Source: a bacterium (GTDB lineage: Bacteria; SAR324; NAC60-12). From it: a stretch of 64,000 nucleotides of DNA. The notes under the pieces were generated by a model. It made no database searches, was not told the DNA's origin, and was given only the letters and a program-made list of their open reading frames with translations. A program made the position numbers and the translations under genes. The stretch's first letter is position 1. Each line of letters opens with the position of its first letter. Shown here piece after piece: positions 26,295 through 37,757 of this stretch. The stretch is taken from NCBI GenBank assembly GCA_965233585.1, contig CBDDTI010000746.1:608001-672000 (forward strand), in the 5' to 3' direction.

Positions 26295-29200
26295 ATGAAT
26301 CTTTTAAAAAGATTTGCACAAATTGCTGCGATTGGACTTGCTGGAGGTTTGATTGCCGCATGTAGTAGTGACAGCTCGTCAAGCAGTAGCAGCAGTGACG
26401 ACGACAAAGCCAGCACCCCAGCTACCACAACCGGAGGAGGCGGAAGCACTTCAAAAGGAGGCAGTGACGCCTTCCCAAGAGTCTCCTTTGCCCCAGGTTC
26501 CACTGATGCCAACAACAAATGTAACGGCTTTGGTGGAATCAAAGCAGAAATAGAAGGCTCTAGTCCCCAAGCCTTTGAATACTTCTGTGATTATGACTTC
26601 CAACATAACTTCACTAAAAACCTAAATGGTGGTGGCGACGATTCCCCACTGGAACCTGAAAACATCAATGCCACGTCTGACAAAATCTTCTTCAACTACA
26701 ATGATGAAGGAAAAAACCAAGTCGGGCTTGTTCAAGATGGTGATGCCAACAGCGCCATTGATTTTGATGACCTTAGCGATGGCACAGTCGCTGGTTTTTA
26801 CAGAACAACCGCCAGCTCCGATGATGATAAAAGGCTCTATATCAGGGTTGACGTTGATGGTGCAGGTGCAGAAACAGTAGAAAGTCTTTACTACATTGAT
26901 GAGTCAGTTTCTCCTAGAAAAGCTGTCCCTGTTAGCGACGTTCCTCACATTCAGGCTGCTAATAATAAAGTCTTTGTAGCAGATTCAGGGGTATTTGTTG
27001 TGCAAGCTGATGGAGGTGTTTATTCAGTGGGTGGAACAGATGGAGTCACAGTCACCACTCATACCTACGCTGCTATTACTGGGCTTGACACAGGAGATAT
27101 TGCAGTAGGTGCGGGAACAACAGACCTTGCAAAAGTTCAAGGTGATACTTTGTATCTGCCACTGGACAATGCAGGTGGTGCTGCAACTGCTCTAGACGCA
27201 GATTCTCTCGGCATTTTTACTCATGGAACAGCCGCAGTTGCAACAAGCAGTGATATCAACACAGCATGGGCTGGCGATGAAAATAAAGCCTTGTTTGTCG
27301 CAGACTCAGGAATCTTTGTTGTTTCTACTGATGACGATGTTTACTCATTAGACGGAGCAACATTGACCACTCATACCTATGGCGATATAGGCAGCCTTGC
27401 CTCAGCAGATGTTGCAGTGGGTGCAGGAACAACAGGACTTGCAAAGGTGAAAGGCGATACCTTGTATCTTCCACTAGACGACGCAGGTGGTGCTGCAACT
27501 GCTCTAGACGCAGATTCTCTCGGTGCTTTCAAACATGGAACAGCAGCAGCGGAAGATGTTGCAGATATTACTACTGCATGGGATGGAACTGAAGCCAAAG
27601 CCTTGTTTGTAGCAGGTTCAGGAATCTTTGTTGTTTCTACTGATGACCAAGTTTATTCGGTTGCAGTGAGTGACTCAAATGTTGCCACAGTGACCACTCA
27701 TACCTACGCTGCTATTACTGGGCTTGGCTCTGCAGATATTGCAGTAGGGGCAGGGACAACGGGGCTTGCAAAGGTGCAGGATGACACTTTGTATCTTCCA
27801 TTAGACAATGCAAATGGTGCTGCAACTGCTCAAGATGCGGATTCTCTCGGTATTTTCGCTCATGGAACAGCAGCAGTTGCAACAAGTAGTATCAATACTG
27901 CGTGGGGTGGAGACGAAGATAAAGCCTTATTTGTAGCAGGTTCAGGAATCTTTGTTGTTTCTACTGATGATAATGTCTATTCAGTGGCAGTGGACGACTC
28001 AAATGTTCCAACAGTAACCACCCATACCTACGTTGCTATTACTGGGCTTGGCTCTGCAGATATTGCAGTAGGGGCAGGAACAACAGGGCTTGCAAAGGTG
28101 AAAGGTGATACTTTGTATCTTCCACTAGACAACGCAGGTGGTGCTGCAACTACCCAAGATGCAGACTCACTCGGCATTTTCACTCATGGAACAGCAGCAG
28201 TTGCTACAAACGCCGCTGTCAATACAGCATGGGCTGGAGATGAAGATAAAGACGTTCTCGTTACAGAAAATGGTGTCTTTGTTGTTTCTGATGAGGATGG
28301 CATTTATTACTTCAGACCTGGAAGTTCAGGAGCAAACGTCACAGGCATCATTGATGCGGCAGATGTTGATAAGGATAATTTCAAAGTGGCAAAGGCAGCC
28401 AAAGGAGCATTAAGCAACTACGCTTTTCACGAAAGTGCAATGATTCTTGGGACTAACCCTGCAGTTGCTTTGAATGAAATCGCCATCTCTGCTGACCAAT
28501 TTGTTCAAACCACCAACGGCAACACTTACTTCACAATCAATGGAAACTTTGACACAGGTCTTTATGCTCATGGAGTGACTGACACAATAGGCATCAGACC
28601 AGCAGTCACAGGCTCTGCAATCAATGCAACCGCAGTCGCTGCCAACGGCAATGATGTTTACTTCTCCACAGCAGATAACTTGTTCAGTTTCAGTGCAATC
28701 GCAACGACTCATGGTGGTTCCGTAACTGACGTCAGCGTCATCTCTGCTCCAACAACGACAACAAGTTCTGCTGTTGATAAAAACAAAAACCTTGAAAAAT
28801 TGGTCTTTGTAGAAGACCAGCTTTATGCACTCAAGAGCAATAAGGTTTACGCATTGAATGACACAGGTGAACTGGATGAAGTACAAACTGATGACGAAAC
28901 TCCAGCAAGTATCTCTGTCAATTCTATCCATCAAGTTGGAGACCAGTTGATTGCAGTGGGGTCAAGTAACGTGTATTCCATTTCTGGCGACGACCCAGCC
29001 GCAACAGAAATTGAAAACACGACTGGAGACACTCCAGCCTCTCTCACTGGCGCAAAATGGGTCGCTGTTGCAGGAGATGTGTTGTTTTTCAATACTGGCG
29101 ATAACAATCTCTGGTTAACTCAAGGTGATTCAGACTCTACCAAACCAGTGAGGAGAAATGGCAATAACGTGACGTGGAATTTAACTGCACAAGATAACAA

Positions 29201-29567
29201 AGCAGTCCAGTCTGGCGATGACTACTACACTCTTTGGAATGGCTTCTTGTATTGGGTGAACGAAAGCACAGGAGTTGCTGTAAGAGCCTCTACAACGAAT
29301 AGGGAGCTTGGCACAGAATCTGTTCAAGGACTCATAGCACTCAAAGTAGGTGATGCCGATGCGATTGCTATCACGACCAGATCAGGTGCTGTTAAAGTCT
29401 TGGTTGGTTGGAAAGGCAAACCAAACAATAAGTTTGTCAATGTGAATACTGGTGGAACTTGGAACACTGCCAAGCCATACTTTGTTGGTGATAGACTTTA
29501 CTTCACAGGCAAAAATGGTCTAGGCATTGAATGGTATTACTTGCAAAAAACGATACCATCTAATTAG
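26295..29567 (+). CDS. 1090-aa acidic surface lipoprotein with four 104-109-aa repeats (S-layer/adhesin-like)
   Basis: Lipobox LIAAC, Ser/Thr linker, repeats, beta-rich propeller-like C-terminus; GAGGA RBS. Confidence 0.8.
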   Translation: MNLLKRFAQIAAIGLAGGLIAACSSDSSSSSSSSDDDKASTPATTTGGGGSTSKGGSDAFPRVSFAPGSTDANNKCNGFGGIKAEIEGSSPQAFEYFCDYDFQHNFTKNLNGGGDDSPLEPENINATSDKIFFNYNDEGKNQVGLVQDGDANSAIDFDDLSDGTVAGFYRTTASSDDDKRLYIRVDVDGAGAETVESLYYIDESVSPRKAVPVSDVPHIQAANNKVFVADSGVFVVQADGGVYSVGGTDGVTVTTHTYAAITGLDTGDIAVGAGTTDLAKVQGDTLYLPLDNAGGAATALDADSLGIFTHGTAAVATSSDINTAWAGDENKALFVADSGIFVVSTDDDVYSLDGATLTTHTYGDIGSLASADVAVGAGTTGLAKVKGDTLYLPLDDAGGAATALDADSLGAFKHGTAAAEDVADITTAWDGTEAKALFVAGSGIFVVSTDDQVYSVAVSDSNVATVTTHTYAAITGLGSADIAVGAGTTGLAKVQDDTLYLPLDNANGAATAQDADSLGIFAHGTAAVATSSINTAWGGDEDKALFVAGSGIFVVSTDDNVYSVAVDDSNVPTVTTHTYVAITGLGSADIAVGAGTTGLAKVKGDTLYLPLDNAGGAATTQDADSLGIFTHGTAAVATNAAVNTAWAGDEDKDVLVTENGVFVVSDEDGIYYFRPGSSGANVTGIIDAADVDKDNFKVAKAAKGALSNYAFHESAMILGTNPAVALNEIAISADQFVQTTNGNTYFTINGNFDTGLYAHGVTDTIGIRPAVTGSAINATAVAANGNDVYFSTADNLFSFSAIATTHGGSVTDVSVISAPTTTTSSAVDKNKNLEKLVFVEDQLYALKSNKVYALNDTGELDEVQTDDETPASISVNSIHQVGDQLIAVGSSNVYSISGDDPAATEIENTTGDTPASLTGAKWVAVAGDVLFFNTGDNNLWLTQGDSDSTKPVRRNGNNVTWNLTAQDNKAVQSGDDYYTLWNGFLYWVNESTGVAVRASTTNRELGTESVQGLIALKVGDADAIAITTRSGAVKVLVGWKGKPNNKFVNVNTGGTWNTAKPYFVGDRLYFTGKNGLGIEWYYLQKTIPSN
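27054..28310 (+). repeat. Four intragenic tandem repeats
   Basis: acc-acY-catacctaY anchors at 27054, 27366, 27693 and 28017 (periods 312, 327, 324 bp). Confidence 0.92.
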
Positions 29568-29600
29568 TCGTTGACCCTTCTTTTTTAACCTTTTTTACGA

Positions 29601-29661
29601 CCTTCTTTTGTCTTTCTCTCACAGCGGAGGAAGGCAACCCGAGAAGGTTGCAACCTTCTTT
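29601..29661 (+). terminator. 3' hairpin/terminator including a perfect 18-bp palindrome
   Basis: agaaggttgcaaccttct at 29642-29659 followed by T's; upstream alternative stem ccttc...gaagg. Confidence 0.55.
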
Positions 29662-29684
29662 CACGTCATTGTCGACGTGTCTAA

Positions 29685-29880
29685 GTCATTGCGGGACCTG
29701 ACCCGCAATCTCCCTCGTCTTCTTCCCAACAACGCCTTTTTTTGAGATTCCGCATCAAGTGCGGAATGACTGAGAGGTTTTGTAGGCGTGTCTTTCCGTC
29801 ATTGCTTACCTTGCCCCGCAATCTCCCTTGTCTTTTTCTCAACAACTCCTTTTTTTGAGATTCCGTGTTCCCCCGTCATT
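29685..29880. repeat. CGTC-type REP doublets (REPIN-like)
   Basis: gtcattgcgggacctgacccgcaatctc - spacer - gagattccgcatcaagtgcggaatgac; second degenerate doublet from 29798. Confidence 0.88.
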
Positions 29881-30652
29881 GGCAGTGTTCACTTGATATT
29901 GGCATGATATTTTTCAAACCTTTTATAGTCAAAGAAGAGTTGTAGAGAGTGTTCCAGCATGTCCAAAGTTTTAGAATGTCGTTTAGATTTTCTCATCAAG
30001 CGAGCTAGGTTATCTCTGATGGAAGAATTAGAAGATTCAATGAGATGAGTCTTTTTTTGCCTATTTCGTGGTTCTCTGGAATTTGTCATTGAGCAAATGC
30101 CACTTGATAGCATGAGTTGGCATCGGTATAGATCGTCTTCATTCTAGGTCGCTGTTCTTTGACTAGTGCATACAGCTTTCGCACAGCTACTAATCCTTTG
30201 CCTATCACAAAGGCAATCACACATTGTTCTTGACGAGAATAGGCTGTCCAAACAGCTACTCTTTGGCTTTTTTTTGAACAAAAGTGTAGATCTCATCCAT
30301 CTCTATACTATCTACTTGTACATGGAAACTTGGTGCGTCTTTTGGAAGTTGAGACACTCTAGCTTTTTTGATCCAGTTGACAATTGAAGCGGGAGACACC
30401 TGCAAAAAACGAGCGATCTTTCTGATGCCTACACTATTGACATACATCTCTAAGGCTTGACGCTTTGTCTCTAGTGGGATTCTCAAACCATTTGAGGTGA
30501 ATGCTCTCTGACATGACTTGCAACGATACCTCTGAACCCCTTTGTAACTTCCATTCTTGATATAAGTCTGACTCCCACAATGATGACAACTTCTCATTTC
30601 CATTCCTCAAATTCACTCTCACATGCAATGACAATACCAACTAAACACTGCC
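29881..30652 (-). mobile_element. IS1-family element (772 bp), transposase pseudogenised
   Basis: TIRs GGCAGTGTTcAcTTGaTATTGgCAT / GGCAGTGTTtAgTTGgTATTGtCAT; 8-bp TSD ccgtcatt; InsA zinc ribbon and HTH at 30256-30603; A8 slip site; InsB carries extra frameshifts and a stop. Confidence 0.93.
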
Positions 30653-30865
30653 CCGTCATTGCGGGACCTGACCCGCAATCTCTCTTGTTTTCTATCCGCG
30701 TCATCGCTCACCTTGAAAACCGTCATTGCTCACCTTGTCCGCCATCTCATCCTTCTTAAAACACATGACAAACTTGGGTTTGTCCCTACGTTGTGACCTG
30801 ATGGCTTGCCTTTTCGTCATGGTTTACTTTAAAAACCGTCATTGCTCAACTTGATTCCACAATCT
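30653..30865. repeat. REP cluster continuing after IS1
   Basis: gtcattgcgggacctgacccgcaatctc at 30655, plus degenerate cgtcattgctca units. Confidence 0.85.
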
Positions 30866-31068
30866 GTCTTCTTTCTACTTCCTCCCATTCCCAAACGCAT
30901 TCTTTCTTCAAAACAGCCAAAAAATTCCTTAAAAACCAAAAAAATTTCCTCAAATCCTGAGTCTTAACTTGTTTTTTTTTTGTACGTGCATAATGCCCGT
31001 TTTGGTTTTTCGCAAAACTCTTATCTTGAAAACAAATGAAGGTTTCATTTCAAGAGGAGAGTTTTTCT

Positions 31069-34000
31069 ATGACAGTATCCTTTGTGTGGAGTGTTGTTTT
31101 TTTGTTGGTTTTTAATTTTTCTTCATCTTGTTCAATTTTGTTTAAGCAGAAAAAGAAACACAAGCACAAGGGGGTCAATGTTTGCAGATTCCCAAAACAC
31201 AGACGCAAGGCACAGGCAACCTTGCCATCTTCAACTCACTAGATGAAGATGTGCTGCTGTCGTATTCCAGCAGTCTGAATGCTGATGATGTGATGGCTGT
31301 CATTGGTGGCAAGCAAAATGGCGTGAAGGTGGACATTTCAAAACGCACCTCTTCCACGGTCATGGTGTTTGGATTCAAAATGCCAGCAGTCAAGGACTAT
31401 CTGAAAGCAGATTGCGATGAGACCAAGATGCCAACAGCGTTTGTGCAAAGTGAGTTCATTCCAACAGCCGAATCTAGTTTTGTGCTGGAAGCCAGCGAGG
31501 TGAAACAAGACTACGGGACATTGCTGATATTCAACAAACGTTCTGGACTGGTGTCTATTTTTCAAGGCAGTTCAAGGAACAAGCAAATCGGAGTGGTTCA
31601 GGCTGGTCAGTCTAACTATCGGATTCAAATCCCCATCGGCTACAAACAACTCGTGTTTTACCTACACAACCCATCAGGAGGCATTGACTTTACAAAACCT
31701 GTCTTTTCCAAAAATCTGGTCTTTAACAAAGGAGACACTAAACTGGTATTCATTCCCAACAAGACCATTTTCAATGGTGCGAAGATCAAGTTTCTCAATG
31801 CCTCTGCCCAAGATGTGATGCTGATGGTGAGAAAGAGTGATAGCCCGTTGTCTAATATAGAGTGCAGTTGTGAGGTCGTTGGCAAACAATCGGATAAACC
31901 TGTGATGATTCTGGTGCAAGACAAGTATTATGCTGATGACTTCTTCTTTTCTGTCATCAATGCAGAGACAGGTGAGACCTTGACAGAGAGTCAACCCTTT
32001 CAGTTAGATAAAAAAACGAACGCCAGTTTTAAGCTACAAACAGATTTGACTCTGAAGAAGACAGATGTGGGCAAGGGTCAAGTTGTTGTGCCAAATGAAA
32101 AACCCAGCACGCCAAGTGAAGTGAAAACGAGCGAGGTCAAAGCCAGCAGTGTCAAAGTCAGTTGGTCGCCTTCAGCAGATTCTGATGGTGAAGTGGCAGG
32201 TTATGAAGTCTCTTACAAGACAAGTAGCGGGTCATGGACTGGCACACAAACCACCACTCAAACCAGTTTGATTGTGTCAGGATTACAGCCTGAGACCAGC
32301 TACACTTTCCGTGTTCGTGCCAAAGATGATGAGGGAGACTGGAGTGCTTATGAAGAAAGCCAACCTGTCAAGACGCCTGAAGCTGCCAATCAACCACCCA
32401 GCAAACCTAGCACCATCAGCACCAGCCAAGTCACTGCGAGTAGTATCAAGGTCTCATGGTCTGCTGCCACAGACTCTGACGGAAGTATTGCAGGCTATGA
32501 AATCTCTTACAAATCAGGCAATAATGTTTTTTGGACAGGAATCAGCACGACAGCCAGCACGACTTACAGCTTCAATCAATTACAACCTGCCACCAGCTAC
32601 ACCTTCCGTGTTCGTGCCAAAGATGATGACGGAGATTGGAGTCCTTACCAGACAAGCACTGCTGTCAGCACTGCACCCAATGCACCAACTGCGCTTGCTG
32701 TCTCTGCTAGAAGCCTGACTTTTATGATGACTTCAGGCAGCAGCTATGAATGCTCCAAAGATGCTGGCACAACCAAAACCAACTGCAACAGCCCCTTTAG
32801 TTTTGGCGATGATGCCATTGCCAAAGACAAGCTCTGCGTCCGTGTCAAAGCATCAGGCAATACGCCTGCTTCTGATTGGAGTTGCTACAGCCAAGCCATT
32901 AATCAACCACCAAGCAAACCCAGCAACATCAGCACCAGTCAAGTCACTGGCAGCAGCATCACGGTCTCATGGACTGCTTCCACTGATTCTGATGGAAGCA
33001 TTGCAGGCTATGAAGTCTCTTACAAAGAAGAAAGTGGCACATGGACAGGCACACAAACCACCACACAAACCACTTATACTTTCAGCAACCTCACTTGGGT
33101 AACTTCTTACACTTTCAGAGTCAAATCAAAGGATAATGATGGAGAATACAGCTCTTATACAACTAGCTCTTCAGTCAAAACAAAATCAGACAAAACTTTC
33201 GGTGGAAGCGACAGGGACGGTGCTAATTCTATCATTCAAACGTCTGATGGCGGATATGTTGTTGCTGGTTACACTAAAAGTAAAGGAGCAGGTGATAGAG
33301 ATTGGCATATCATCAAATTAAATTCTACTGGCAACCAAGTCTGGGACAAAACCTTCGGTGGAAGTCATGATGACTATGCTAATTCTATCATTCAAACGTC
33401 TGATGGCGGATATGTTGTTGTTGGAATTAAGACTCTCTCAAATGGTAGTTCTTGGTATAATTCTTCTTGGATCATCAAATTAAATTCTAGTGGCAATCAA
33501 GTCTGGGATAAAATTTTTAGGTCTTCAACATTTTGGAGTCTAGGCGGAAATGTCTATACTTATTCCGTAGTTCAAACATCTGATAGCGGATATGTTTTGG
33601 GTGTGAATAGAAATCTTATCAAATTAAATTCTAATGGTAACAAAGTTTGGGATAAACCCTTTCATCGCAGCAGGCTTGACACAGCTAGCTCCATCATTCA
33701 AACGTCCGATGGCAGATATGTTGTTGCTGGATATACACTTACTGGTAATAGTTATAATGTGTATATTGCCAATTTAAGTTCTTCTGGAAGACTAAGATGG
33801 CATAGAAACTTTGGTGGAAGTAACGATGATGGTGCTGATTCTATCATTCAAACGTCTGATGGCGGATATGTTGTTGCTGGTTACACTAAAAGTAAAGGAG
33901 CAGGAGATAGTGATGCTTGGATCATCAAATTAAATTCTAATGGTAACAAGGTCTGGGATAAAACCTTCGGTGGAAGCGACAGGGACGGTGCTAATTCTAT

Positions 34001-34106
34001 CATTCAAACGTCTGATGGCGGATATGTTGTTGCTGGTTACACTAAAAGTAAAGGAGCAGGAGATAGTGATGTTTGGCTCATCAAATTAGATGCCAATGGA
34101 AATTAG
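31069..34106 (+). pseudogene. Surface (lipo)protein with 3 FN3 domains and C-terminal beta-propeller repeats; signal peptide out of frame with the body (31182-34106)
   Basis: GAGGAG RBS, ATG 31069, hydrophobic leader ending SSSC in one frame; the body frame is open from 31146; FN3 repeats; TFGGS..D...SIIQTSDGGYVVAG repeats. Confidence 0.65.
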
Positions 34107-34310
34107 GCGAAAAAACCCACTACCAAGCAAGACTTACCCATCCAAATTGGCTCTGACCAATACAAAGTCATCACGGCTTAACACGACCACAGCTTAGCCA
34201 TCAAACAAGACGGCACGCTCTGGGCATGGGATAAAAATCAAGCTGGACAACTAGGCAATGGTATCCGCATCATTCAAAAAACCCCCATGCGTGTCCCCAT
34301 TTTTAAGTAA
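34107..34310 (+). pseudogene. RCC1-repeat relic in frame after the stop of the FN3 protein
   Basis: PIQIGSDQYKVITA*HDHSLAIKQDGTLWAWDKNQAGQLGNG..KTPMRV. Confidence 0.85.
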
Positions 34311-34499
34311 TAAGTGCTTCTGCCTTTGGCATTTACCAGCCCTTCTCTAGCAGAGGGGAATTGAAGCACTCTGTCCTTCGGTTCATTGCTCTCGTTTTCC
34401 TGACTTTTTTAGGTTGCCATTTCTCTTTTTTGAGTGCGTTGTGTTAGAATCTTTTTGGATTTTACTTTATTTATGACTAACTCTAATTAAAAGCTCTTT

Positions 34500-35042
34500 A
34501 TGACCGATGAAGAACTAAAACAGTTGGTGGCTTCTAATGCACAAGCCATTCAGGAACTCAGACCAGCAGTTGCTAGCATGGTGCGGGGCATTCAGAGGAT
34601 GGAAAACTTCATCAGCAATACTTCGGAGATTTTAGAAGGTCGTCTGTGCCGTTCTGTGGAACAGGTTATAGAAAAATATGGCTTCATTGAAATTGGAGGC
34701 ATTCGCTACGACGAAGTGGAACAAAACCTCAAAGGGAAAAATGGCATCACGGCTCAATACGATCTTGTGTTGTTCAGCAAAACAAAACATTTGCTTTTGA
34801 TAGAAGTCAAACGCAAACCTCATGTCAAAGATTTCCAACAAGTGCTTCGGCAGAAAGAGACCTTTCCTAAATTGTTTCCAAGTTATCAAGACTATACAAT
34901 CCATTGCGGTTTGGCAGGAGAAGTCTTTTATGACGAACTCATCAGTGAGGCAGAAGAAGAAGGCATTTATCTTTTTCAAGAACAAGCGGGAGAATTACAG
35001 GTCATCACGTCTGCTTCGTTGCAACCACAGCTGGAAGCGTAG
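34500..35042 (+). CDS. Coiled-coil plus PD-(D/E)XK nuclease-fold protein (DUF3782-like)
   Basis: Heptad N-terminus; E...QYDLVL...LLIEVK core; AEEEGIY C-terminal motif. Confidence 0.75.
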   Translation: MTDEELKQLVASNAQAIQELRPAVASMVRGIQRMENFISNTSEILEGRLCRSVEQVIEKYGFIEIGGIRYDEVEQNLKGKNGITAQYDLVLFSKTKHLLLIEVKRKPHVKDFQQVLRQKETFPKLFPSYQDYTIHCGLAGEVFYDELISEAEEEGIYLFQEQAGELQVITSASLQPQLEA

Positions 35043-35080
35043 AATCCTGAACGCTGGTTTTCTTTTTTCCTAAACTACCC

Positions 35081-35718
35081 CGTCATTGTGGGCTTGACCC
35101 GCAATCTCCTTCTTTTTCCCAACAACTCCTTTTTTTGAGATTCTGAATCAAGTTCAGAATGACGGATTTGAGTCATTCCCCTGTTTTCACAAGAGGCAGG
35201 CTCTGAGTTCTCTTCGTCATCCCTGCGAAAGCAGGAATCCATGCTTGGTTTGGTGATAGATTCCGCATCAAGTGCAGAATGACAACTATTGTCATTCGTA
35301 GCGAAAGAACGTCACCCCTGTGAAAACAGGGGCAGGAATCCAGTCACGTTAGTAATCTGTGCTTGGTTTAAGATAGATTCCGCATCAAGTGCGGAATGAC
35401 GGGAGGATTGCATGTTGTCTCTTCGTCCTTGCGGGCTTGACCCGCAATCTCACTCTTGTTTTTTAAGATTCCGCATCAAGTGTGGAATGACTGGGAGAAG
35501 CACAGAATGACAGGAGGATTTTGCTGTGTTGCACTTGGTCATTCCTGCGAAAGCAGGAATCCATGCCTTGTTTAGGGTAGATTCCGCATCAAGTGCGGAA
35601 TGACTTGATTGCTGTGCAGAATGACGGGAGAACGTTTGAGATTGCGGGTCAAGCTCGCAATGACGGAAAGACTGCTGGAGATTCCCTGTCAAGTGTGGAA
35701 TGACGAAAGGACTGTCAT
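35081..35718. repeat. Dense CGTC-type REP/REPIN array (more than 10 palindromes of at least 3 subtypes)
   Basis: agattccgcatcaagtgcggaatgac and variants, gtcattcctgcgaaagcaggaatcc, ttgcgggcttgacccgcaatctc. Confidence 0.92.
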
Positions 35719-35728
35719 TAGAAAATAA

Positions 35729-36489
35729 GGTATTGTTAAACTATAAGTGATATGCGATATTAAGTTCATTTAATTGAATTGATAGTCATGGTGTAGCAAT
35801 GAAGTCGTGTCCTAGATGTGAAAGTGAGAAGACGGTTAAGAATGGTTTTTTATATGGTAAACCGAGGAGGCGTTGCAATGCCTGCAACTATCAATATACC
35901 AAGTCCTATCGTGGCCAAATCTCACCACAGATCAAAAGAAGAGCATTAGAGTTGTATTTGGAGGGTCTTGGTTTCAGGTCAATCGGTCGTTTGCTGAATT
36001 GTTCTCATGTTTCAGTTTATAATTGGGTCTGTAGTTTTGGCGAACAGCTCAAGGCATTAAGATAAGGACACAGACATTGAAATTATGGAAATTGATGAAA
36101 TGCACACCTACATCCAGTCAAAAAAAACTACTGCTGGCTCTGGATTGCTGTTGATAGATGTGGGAAGCAATTTATCAATTGTGTGCTTGGAAACAGAGAC
36201 TCAAAAGCCTGTAGGCATTTATGGGACAAGGTCAAGGAAACAAAACCTCTTCAGGTGATGACTGATCACTGGAAGGCTTACAAACAAGTCATTCCCAAAG
36301 AAATTCATACATGTTCCAAGGCAGAAACATACACGATAGAAGGGTATAATTCTCTCTTGAGACATTTCTTGGCAAGAATGAGAAGGAAAACCAAATGTTA
36401 CAGCAAGTCTCTTAAAGCATTACAATATTCTGTTCTTTTGTTCATGGCAAAACGGAATAATCAACTATCACTTATTACTTAACAATGCC
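35729..36489 (+). mobile_element. IS1-family element (761 bp), frameshifted transposase
   Basis: TIRs GGTATTGTTAAACTATAAGTGATA / GGCATTGTTAAGTAATAAGTGATA; flanks gaaaataa/aaaaataa; InsA 35799-36065; A-run+C slip site about 36120; InsB TDHW..Y, IEGYNS..RH; extra frameshift about 36061. Confidence 0.92.
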
Positions 36490-36533
36490 AAAAATAATTA
36501 TTTTTTGAAAAAGAAAATTGTTTTTGATTGAAA

Positions 36534-37757
36534 TCAAAAAAAGTGAAATACCACTTGAATTAAGTCTAATTCCCACTCGTAAAATTTGACTTTTTTGCCT
36601 TCTTCTAATTCCATTTCTAAATCAGGGGTATAGCGAATGTTGGTGCGAAGCACGAAAAATTGATTCATCGTAGGGCGAATATCCCACCCTGTTATCAAGC
36701 CCGGTTTGTTCACTGTCTCTTTCTTATCCCAAACGATTTTTCCTTCATCTCTTTCATAGTAGCTCATCTCCACTTGGTTCAGGCTCAAGCCAATATAGGG
36801 GTCAAATCCCTGATAATCAAAAATAAAGCTGTAAACCTCAAGACTTGTGTTGGTCTGTGAGATGGTATTTTTTAGACCAAAGGCGTCTTGACTATTGGTA
36901 AACTCACGATAAGAGATATTAAATTGAGTTTCTTTTTCTCTCCACCACCAACCTACTGCAAGGTCTAGTGCTAGATCACTGATAGGTTCTTGGTGTAAAA
37001 ATGGTCTCTCTTCTTCCAAATATGATGATTCACCTTGAACCCATGCGAACACTCCACCGATTCCTACTGTCAAGTTGTTGCCTGTGACTTGGATACGGGA
37101 AGGATCTGCGGCACCAGCAGTGGTTTCAAAAGAGTATTTATAACCAGCCCAGATGGATTGTTCTGGGAGCTTGACTTTGATAGCTTGGTCTCTTGTGATG
37201 TAGTAATCTATTTTCAGACGATGTGCATTAATTTTTTGGACTCCTGCTTCTAACATACCAATAGGTGTCGCCCAAACTAGTCCATAATTCCAACTTGTAC
37301 GATTTTTTGTAATCTCTGCCCCTTTTTCCCCGTCATCAGATTGGAGGTAATTCAAGGGATTCCAAGCAATGCCAACAAAAGGACTGACCCACCAAAGGCT
37401 AATTGGGATTGGATAAAACCTAAAACCTGTTTCAATGCCATGTGTGTAAGAGATACTTAAATCTCCTTCTTTTGTTTCGCTTCTTATAGGAAAAGAGACA
37501 TAAGCGTCAGCAAATCCCCAAAAGTGCAATGCACCGATAGTCAATCTTGTCTCAGAGTTGGGACGCAATGAAACCTCCTCTAACTCCCCATTTCTTAAAA
37601 CACTCGTTTCTATATCTTCAGAAAAACTCATTTGACCGATACCCAAATAGGTTTGTGCAAAAGAAAATCGTTCGTAATTTTCAGGATAGGCTTGTGCAAA
37701 TGCCATTTGTGCAGAGAAGAACATGATGACAAACAGCCATTTAGTTATTTTTAACAT
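36534..37757 (-). CDS. Hypothetical outer-membrane beta-barrel protein
   Basis: Signal peptide (AFA), amphipathic aromatic beta-strands, C-terminal Phe. Confidence 0.65.
   Translation of the reverse strand: MLKITKWLFVIMFFSAQMAFAQAYPENYERFSFAQTYLGIGQMSFSEDIETSVLRNGELEEVSLRPNSETRLTIGALHFWGFADAYVSFPIRSETKEGDLSISYTHGIETGFRFYPIPISLWWVSPFVGIAWNPLNYLQSDDGEKGAEITKNRTSWNYGLVWATPIGMLEAGVQKINAHRLKIDYYITRDQAIKVKLPEQSIWAGYKYSFETTAGAADPSRIQVTGNNLTVGIGGVFAWVQGESSYLEEERPFLHQEPISDLALDLAVGWWWREKETQFNISYREFTNSQDAFGLKNTISQTNTSLEVYSFIFDYQGFDPYIGLSLNQVEMSYYERDEGKIVWDKKETVNKPGLITGWDIRPTMNQFFVLRTNIRYTPDLEMELEEGKKVKFYEWELDLIQVVFHFF

Follow-up and report, generated by a model that had tools for sequence, protein, structure and literature searches.

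The 64,000-nucleotide (nt) stretch of bacterial DNA analysed here (the window; C746:608001-672000, where C numbers denote contigs) carries on its forward strand an open reading frame (ORF) of 974 amino acids (aa) at 31182-34106, and we found that this gene is a mosaic: the 3' third of its third FN3 repeat and the beta-propeller behind it have another history than the stalk that precedes them. With moderate confidence we read the gene as the outcome of a one-off, homology-anchored replacement of the terminal head in a paralogue of an apparently lineage-restricted lipoprotein family, and not as part of a cassette system. The window belongs to an 830-kb contig of a 12.0-Mb assembly (747 contigs, 39.8% GC), and positions without a contig name refer to the window.

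The ORF begins with TTG at 31182 and opens with a family-specific N-domain of ~300 aa (31182-32096), predicted to be all-beta; its first ~300 residues have no Pfam or NCBIfam match. FN3 #1 (32097-32381), FN3 #2 (32382-32672), a four-cysteine spacer module of ~73 aa (32673-32891) and FN3 #3 follow. Pfam recognised FN3 (PF00041) in three stretches, with 156.9 bits against a cut-off of 25. At the DNA level, FN3 #1 is up to 98% identical to paralogue units in its 5' part, and the spacer, which many family members share, is 77-82% identical to at least eight other loci of the genome. FN3 #3 is divided into family-type 5' two thirds (32892-33082) and a foreign-type 3' third (33083-33185), in which the fold motif is kept and the codons differ. 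Next come the head, a six-bladed DUF5122/delta-60-like beta-propeller (33198-34103; PF17164 and an AlphaFold2 (AF2) model), a TAG stop (34104-34106) and, past it, an RCC1 stump with a native double stop (34107-34313). The right junction lies within ~9 nt downstream of the TAG.

The break inside FN3 #3 was located by comparison with the family. The genome contains 35 FN3 units of this kind, which were codon-aligned, and FN3 #3 was set against the consensus of the other 34. A maximum chi-square scan placed the break after 33082, with 84% identity to the consensus on the left and 50% on the right (chi-square 36.9). None of 5000 column shuffles equalled this value, and it was the highest among the 35 units; the next-strongest contrasts came from units that merge at their ends into another adjoining module. 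The 3' part of FN3 #3 reached at best 59% identity to any unit, the lowest value of the 35 once a single unit that diverges over its whole length is set aside, whereas in a control other unit pairs with 70-80% identity in the 5' 198 nt averaged 75% in the 3' 96 nt. The closest single match of the 5' part (78%) was the FN3 preceding the RCC1 head in C295:31641-34196. The preliminary description of this DNA had called the start of FN3 #3 nearly identical to those of the two earlier repeats. The similarity is there, with 87% identity to FN3 #2 over the first 126 nt, but near-identity was overstated: FN3 #1 gave 67%, and over 198 nt the two values were 73% and 64%. According to the AF2 model, the chimeric FN3 #3 is predicted still to fold, as a beta-sandwich with a predicted local distance difference test score (pLDDT) of 78-90.

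Codon composition changes with the break. A switch to AT-rich codons had been placed at about 33090-33100, only ~10 nt from the position found here, and the codon strings quoted for it are present at 32593-32625 and 33102-33134. In 200-nt windows, the GC content was 0.48-0.51 over 32100-33099, 0.36-0.42 over 33000-34099 and 0.47 past the stop. The GC fraction and the C fraction at third codon positions (GC3/C3) were 0.47/0.39 in the stalk (32382-33083; C3 of FN3 #2 alone 0.39), 0.29/0.21 in the new part (33084-34103) and 0.52/0.40 in the stump (34107-34307). Both segments of the new part share the AT-rich style, which lasts through the propeller as had been described (GC3 0.31 in the foreign-type third of FN3 #3 and 0.28 in the propeller). 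By Fisher tests, the new part differed from the stalk (p = 1e-5 for GC3 and 2e-6 for C3) and from the stump (3e-4 and 9e-4), while stump and stalk did not differ (0.49 and 0.89). From stalk to new part, AGC fell from 21 of 43 to 8 of 50 serine codons and GGC from 10 of 14 to 8 of 44 glycine codons, and arginine moved from CGT to AGA/AGG. For reference, the long ORFs of the genome have a median GC3 of 0.38 (5-95% range, 0.27-0.54). Stalks have a GC3 of 0.45-0.55 across the family. The genome median is not exceeded by the SBBP heads, by the Lcl_C head or by one of the Kelch heads, and the RCC1 head of C295 is particularly low (0.16-0.28); two Kelch heads are GC3-rich.

Past the TAG, the frame of the ORF reads AKKPTTKQDLPIQIGSDQYKVITA, a stop, HDHSLAIKQDGTLWAWDKNQAGQLGNGIRIIQKTPMRVPIFK and two further stops, ending with TAA TAA at 34308-34313. 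This agrees with the preliminary description of a C-rich RCC1 repeat in frame behind the stop and bearing one TAA (34179-34181). With an X placed at this TAA, the stump scored 28.9 bits with PF00415 (RCC1; cut-off 21.7); with PF25390 (WD40_RLD) it scored 36.3 bits, below the cut-off of 150, and covered only profile positions 87-135 of 363. Its 67 codons correspond to ~1.3 of ~7 blades, namely the end of the penultimate blade and the last blade, and RCC1 similarity begins at codon 4 past the TAG. It shares the blade motif HSLAIKQDGTLWAWG.N..GQLG with the RCC1 lipoproteins of the genome (C747:199429-200931, 202108-203616, 529196-530779 and 738576-740114; C745:237210-238796), and its C-terminal TPMRVPIFK before the double stop resembles their endings, TPVKVRF and APVKLSF. 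Unlike them, it is a fragment that is interrupted by one stop and lacks its own start. We infer that the stump is what is left of a former head of this same gene, now decaying behind the TAG. For 16 family genes, the 1.5 kb behind each was searched by blastx with the heads of 12 family genes and 5 RCC1 genes, so that every head type was represented. A foreign-head remnant was found behind this gene and none of the other 15; the remaining matches belonged to the following tandem gene or to a continuation shifted in frame. The earlier idea that the displaced head is left as an orphan holds insofar as an RCC1 3' end stands in frame behind the stop, but the remnant is restricted to 1 of 16 genes and carries no FN3 handle.

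Both junctions are present in short-read data. Logan unitigs crossed the FN3 #3 break without a mismatch (32860-33227, 368 nt, in run X2; 32996-33227, 232 nt, in X1, X3 and X4), and a 537-nt unitig (34042-34578) crossed the TAG junction in 4 of 4 runs, also without a mismatch. The four runs come from two samples of one study, possibly including the source sample. Because 33082 and 34106 are bridged in all of them, the junctions are real and not an assembly chimera, the latter being an outcome that the preliminary description had named as fatal to its reading.

The gene belongs to a family of paralogues within this genome. A tblastn search with the N-domain found nine loci on the three largest contigs, and in this domain eight paralogues are 60-94% identical. 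Four carry Kelch propellers as heads (C746:183947, C746:585140, C747:157614 and C745:66516), two carry SBBP propellers (C747:469437 and the interrupted C746:52566), one carries two Lcl_C/DUF1566 domains (C746:377829), and one is a truncated copy cut by an IS1-like element (C745:229926); the window copy is the only one with DUF5122. Paralogues with the same N-terminus and FN3 repeats and other C-termini, which the preliminary description had proposed to look for, are therefore present. In 14 family proteins, Pfam assigned the heads to Lcl_C, Kelch, SBBP and RCC1. In intact copies, a signal peptide with lipobox is followed by the ~300-aa N-domain, by FN3 and four-cysteine modules that form a stalk and by a head at the end, an architecture which suggests that a lipid-anchored stalk would present the head so that it can bind a ligand. 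By visual inspection, the lipobox reads MQKLINRC...LLCITTLFAC/SSDD or ...LIGC/GEDG; together with the signal peptide it is in frame in 7 of the 8 other N-domain copies, and in C747:469437 it lies upstream and out of frame.

The stalk modules are also reused on other N-termini, and at least 16 genes of the superfamily contain FN3, four-cysteine and jelly-roll modules. Tracts of 88-99% identity join the 5' parts of paralogues with unlike heads. The first 1.06 kb of two tandem C295 genes are 90.5% identical, after which one has a Kelch head and the other FN3 and an RCC1 head; two jelly-roll genes are 98.1% identical over 1093 nt and then differ, with Kelch in one and SBBP in the other. Considering that different heads stand on shared stalks across the paralogues, head exchange is the rule in this superfamily. 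In addition, C746:502677-504551 and C746:539726-541615, 37 kb apart and 95% identical, lead directly from the signal peptide of the family to FN3, the four-cysteine module and SBBP without an N-domain. Several other copies are damaged. An insertion resembling repetitive extragenic palindromic (REP) sequences is common to three of them (C747:468900-473300, C745:61500-70500 and C745:223000-230800) at the equivalent of 32821, in the four-cysteine module; in two of the three, the frame continues across the insertion into the leader and signal peptide of the next jelly-roll lipoprotein gene, so that fused ORFs of 1163-1673 aa result. Further damage consists of an insertion sequence (IS) insertion and of a frameshift beside the poly-G run of C747:469437.

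A feature that the preliminary description had not mentioned is that the window copy has lost its 5' end. The upstream region common to the paralogues (promoter/5' leader, 30653-31145, forward strand, by blastn) begins exactly where an IS1-like element ends and is 71-86% identical to the regions upstream of other copies (C745:230138-230656, C746:377361-377608, C747:156846-157390 and others). In a MAFFT alignment with four paralogues, with which the blastn offsets agree, ~175-187 bp are then missing. The missing stretch begins just past the conserved TTTGTTTAA and comprises the Shine-Dalgarno region, the ATG, the signal peptide and the lipobox (LFAC); the deletion scar lies at 31140-31150, with its junction at 31145/31146. 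The earliest possible start is the TTG at 31182, and an in-frame TAA precedes it by 12 codons. The copy has neither the signal peptide nor the lipobox cysteine by which a bacterial lipoprotein is recognised, and since export was lost with them and with the ATG, it is most likely a pseudogene. The ORF has stayed open for 974 codons, so the decay must be recent and the copy is probably a young pseudogene. Ahead of the N-domain, the G-run at 31165-31172 varies among the copies (G5 or G7), and C747:469437 has one extra base beside it, which breaks the frame; either a sequencing error or slippage at this site could account for the difference. A promoter and terminator scan of 30600-34700 gave counts not above those of shuffled sequence.

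How could such a gene have arisen? The ancestral gene would have had the order N-domain-FN3-FN3-Cys-FN3-RCC1. An incoming FN3-propeller segment would have paired with the resident FN3 #3 and crossed over near 33082, and its right end would have been joined illegitimately, without homology, a few bases past the donor's own stop. The exchange would have removed the rest of FN3 #3 and all of the RCC1 head but its last 67 codons; the 5' deletion would have come later or independently. By analogy, the pattern would fit homology-facilitated illegitimate recombination with its left junction within FN3-FN3 homology. Both this order of events and the mechanism are what we infer from the end product. 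A single exchange of this kind accounts for both scars, for the stalk-like codons of the stump and for the kinship of the 5' part of FN3 #3 to the FN3 before the C295 RCC1 head.

Several observations weigh against this interpretation or against that of the preliminary description. No FN3 sequence was found in the stump, which starts within the RCC1 head. No allele from before the swap and no syntenic locus for comparison turned up in 30 related genomes or in scans of species-representative genomes and of Joint Genome Institute (JGI) metagenome contigs. No donor of 33140-34103 was found either: apart from the gene's own blades, the best DNA match in its own genome is 69% identical, and the best protein match among 5.8 billion sequences is 55% identical. 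That the donor fragment should end within ~9 nt of its own stop is a coincidence here too. In other paralogue pairs identity stops at domain borders (the four-cysteine 'CYDQAI', the last FN3 strand or the jelly-roll), and a change inside FN3 was found in the window gene only; the proposal that FN3 repeats serve as handles for head exchange is borne out by FN3 #3 here but not by those pairs. A drop in GC3 from stalk to head is seen in most family members, so composition alone shows neither a swap nor a recent or foreign arrival. The compositional break that the preliminary description had relied on is real, but it fails as a sign of recency; what it shows is different histories, or different conversion regimes, of stalks and heads. 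At the 31145 deletion junction, the unitigs had only paralogue-type loose ends and showed no bridging. A Shine-Dalgarno-like AAGGGGG precedes the TTG at 31182, so that some cytoplasmic translation is possible, of a product that could not be exported. Finally, the stump is 48-63% identical to stand-alone RCC1 lipoproteins and 32-42% identical to the C295 head, the only RCC1 head behind FN3, which makes a truncated neighbouring gene a possible source.

That source would imply two events and two genes. The propeller would have been acquired earlier, and the stump would be the 3' end of a former downstream RCC1 lipoprotein gene whose 5' bulk was deleted from just past the TAG. The best matches of the stump (C747:530111, 63% over 43 aa; C747:200281, 48% over 60 aa) and its C-terminal ending point in this direction; moreover, family genes do stand in tandem with other propeller genes, the locus is demonstrably prone to deletion, as its 5' loss shows, and the 3' part of the RCC1 gene C747:529229-530779 is similarly GC3-high (0.45-0.56). 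However, two independent events are required where one is enough, and a deletion starting no more than ~9 nt from the stop would also have to be in frame. The FN3 closest to the 5' part of FN3 #3 precedes an RCC1 head, and stand-alone RCC1 genes mostly have a C3 of 0.10-0.33 against 0.40 in the stump. We regard this history, the main alternative, as possible, although not likely.

On a broader scale, the superfamily in its entirety, with at least 16 genes in a 12-Mb genome, might be a recombination-driven repertoire of surface receptors. Ongoing gene conversion would keep the stalks similar and rich in GC3/C3, the stalks would serve as portable homology for at least five head types, and the system would be a non-toxin counterpart of polymorphic toxin loci with the window copy as a discarded intermediate. 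We put this forward as a speculation that is rather unlikely to be right in full.

Gene conversion could also act without any swap, the 3' third of FN3 #3 and the propeller being native. The 5' part would have been overwritten from a paralogue, raising its GC3/C3, and the break would be the end of the converted tract. The 88-99% tracts that link differently headed paralogues, and stalks that are GC3/C3-rich throughout the family while heads mostly are not, are what this would produce. But the high-identity tracts end at 32655-32821, well short of the break, and in 32822-33082 the best paralogue match is only 76-87%; other tract ends lie at domain borders, and the in-frame RCC1 stump with stalk-like codons is left unexplained. 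We therefore consider this explanation improbable.

More doubtful still is a standing diversification system resembling polymorphic toxins, in which FN3 handles would serve repeated head exchange and displaced heads would be kept as reusable orphans. A constant 5' part, five head types on shared stalks and one displaced-looking stump are the features that suggest it. Against this, the only foreign-head stump within 1.5 kb is that of the window gene; it has ~1.3 blades and a stop codon, and since it has no FN3 part it could not recombine back and is no reusable cassette. The parallel with polymorphic toxins, as drawn in the preliminary description, is not supported, on the same grounds. In the 974-aa ORF, Pfam revealed no toxin domain (PADLOC and toxin-specific libraries were not searched), and the downstream ORF at 34500-35042 (180 aa) has only an HSDR_N match below the cut-off and no NCBIfam match. 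No inverted repeats flank the head within 29500-36600, and no recombinase ORF was recognised there besides the IS1 genes, small ORFs not having been scanned against protein families. IS or REP insertions or frameshifts have disrupted several copies, which looks like decay and not like a maintained system. An assembly artefact, for which FN3 units recurring at 60-100% identity genome-wide and an assembly in 747 contigs might speak, is hardly credible given the mismatch-free unitigs across both junctions in 4 of 4 runs and the 830-kb contig.

The propeller head, unlike the N-domain, is of a widespread type. PF17164 (DUF5122) scored 39.2 bits for the whole protein (cut-off 27), with no single stretch passing alone, and the NCBIfam model of the delta-60 repeat, TIGR02608, scored 59.9 bits, below its cut-off of 76.5. 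The repeat motif FGGS..D.a.SiiQTsDGGYvvaGyT.S.GaG..D.wliKld..Gn is that of DUF5122/delta-60 propellers, and JGI names some relatives of this propeller 'delta-60 repeat protein'; the present propeller differs from such proteins in its TIGR02608 score and in having six blades. AF2, with an alignment of 30 relatives, modelled FN3 #3 and the propeller with a pLDDT of 88.8 and predicted six four-stranded blades, which make up the last 306 codons. The closest solved fold is the CylK propeller (PDB 7ron, E = 1.9e-17) at 21-24% sequence identity; this is a match of fold only, and nothing points to CylK-like catalysis. Of 8000 candidate relatives, 7984 scored, the top protein being the one at 55% identity. 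Relatives end 1-3 residues past the 'KLD..G' strand, so the TAG sits at the usual C-terminal end, and FN3-to-propeller fusions occur natively both in this genome (C747:312329-313723) and among the relatives (P0133, P0147, P0148 and P0235). Blades 1, 5 and 6 are 87-89% identical in DNA, whereas the degenerate blades 3 and 4 share 48-50% of their residues with blade 1, a pattern that points to blades having recently been duplicated or converted within the gene. The closest propeller in the genome (50% aa, 69% nt) belongs to a 902-aa protein (C745:67484-70189, reverse strand) adjoining a family paralogue. This protein combines seven regular DUF5122-like blades with a long, Q-rich N-terminal part that has no Pfam match, yet is GC3-rich (0.43-0.56).

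The N-domain is scarcely found outside this genome. It was absent from the 30 related genomes, none of which is of the same genus and whose matches begin at query residue 319 or later, and from the species-representative genomes and JGI metagenome contigs, in scans from which records very close to this genome may be missing. Against 1.84 billion representatives, a profile built from eight N-domains gave nine matches. Three are from this genome (P0005, P0007 and P0241), and P0006 is 99.7% identical to one of its loci; the others are two fragments of 50-55% identity, one protein of 27% and two weak matches. On this sequence evidence, the lipoprotein family with this N-domain appears almost lineage-restricted. 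The AF2 model of the N-domain, from an 8-row alignment, was poor (pLDDT 41). Neither this family nor a stump left by a head swap in FN3 lipoproteins was found described in the literature covered, to which subscription journals did not belong.

Mobile and repeated elements surround the locus. An IS1-family element (29890-30652, reverse strand, left end approximate) with an InsA-like ORF at 30256-30603 lies upstream, and its end at 30500-30652 (154 nt) is 100% identical at no fewer than 10 other places in the genome. A second, different IS1-family element, recognised by its ORFs, lies downstream (35799-36482, forward strand); the same type interrupts C745:229926. Palindromic arrays resembling REP sequences or miniature inverted-repeat transposable elements (e.g., AGATTCCGCATCAAGTGCGGAATGAC) flank the locus at 29685-29886, 30655-30860 and 35080-35700, the last consisting of repeat families D5-D10. 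Read through, such arrays yield the peptide strings 'DPQSH', 'AFAGMT' and 'RNDE', which recur behind many family genes. Upstream, 26295-29567 (forward strand) encodes a 1090-aa lipoprotein-like ORF (...LIAAC/SSDSSSSSSSS) with several internal repeats of ~95-100 aa and without a Pfam or NCBIfam match. The idea of an invertible segment was rejected, as the head is not framed by inverted repeats. A single pair touches the stump, an AT-rich, 95% complementary 19-nt match between 34298-34316, on the double stop of the stump, and 36469-36487, at the end of the downstream IS1-like ORF, and it is probably due to chance.

Domain exchange between paralogues is usually inferred from end products. In the window gene, both junctions of one exchange would be preserved in a single copy, and the model suggests that a crossover can fall inside an FN3 domain and still leave a foldable hybrid. 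Whatever this bacterium with its large genome binds, the five interchangeable head types of the family are good candidates for doing so. Work by Poole in 2011 and by Koskiniemi in 2014 is said to belong to the context of C-terminal module displacement in polymorphic toxin loci. As in those loci (Rhs, CdiA, effector-immunity pairs of type VI secretion systems (T6SS)), a constant 5' part is combined with a variable 3' part, an old 3' end stands behind the new stop, and the new module was apparently anchored by upstream homology and joined illegitimately downstream. In contrast, the heads here are propeller or lectin-like binding domains (Kelch, SBBP, DUF5122, RCC1 and Lcl_C) without an immunity gene, the leftover is a single dead stump without a handle and not an array, and the crossover lies inside a folded FN3 domain. 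Homology-facilitated illegitimate recombination is defined in PMC3240628, and PMC5361080 proposes that T6SS and Rhs effector modules are displaced in this way. A preprint (bioRxiv 10.64898/2026.05.12.724579) deals with the exchange of modules in phage receptor-binding proteins. The process is already known and no new mechanism is involved; the value of the locus lies in annotation and in its use as an evolutionary example. The classical case of FN3 shuffling among bacterial extracellular proteins is reportedly that of FN3 in glycohydrolases, described by Little, Bork and Doolittle in 1994. Like such shuffling, the present case involves Ig-like repeats as spacers and paralogues that are 88-99% alike before unrelated C-terminal domains. 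Unlike it, the present case concerns lipoproteins with an unannotated N-domain that seem confined to one lineage, and what is new is this family together with the preserved double scar, a single copy keeping both marks of the exchange with the crossover inside a domain.

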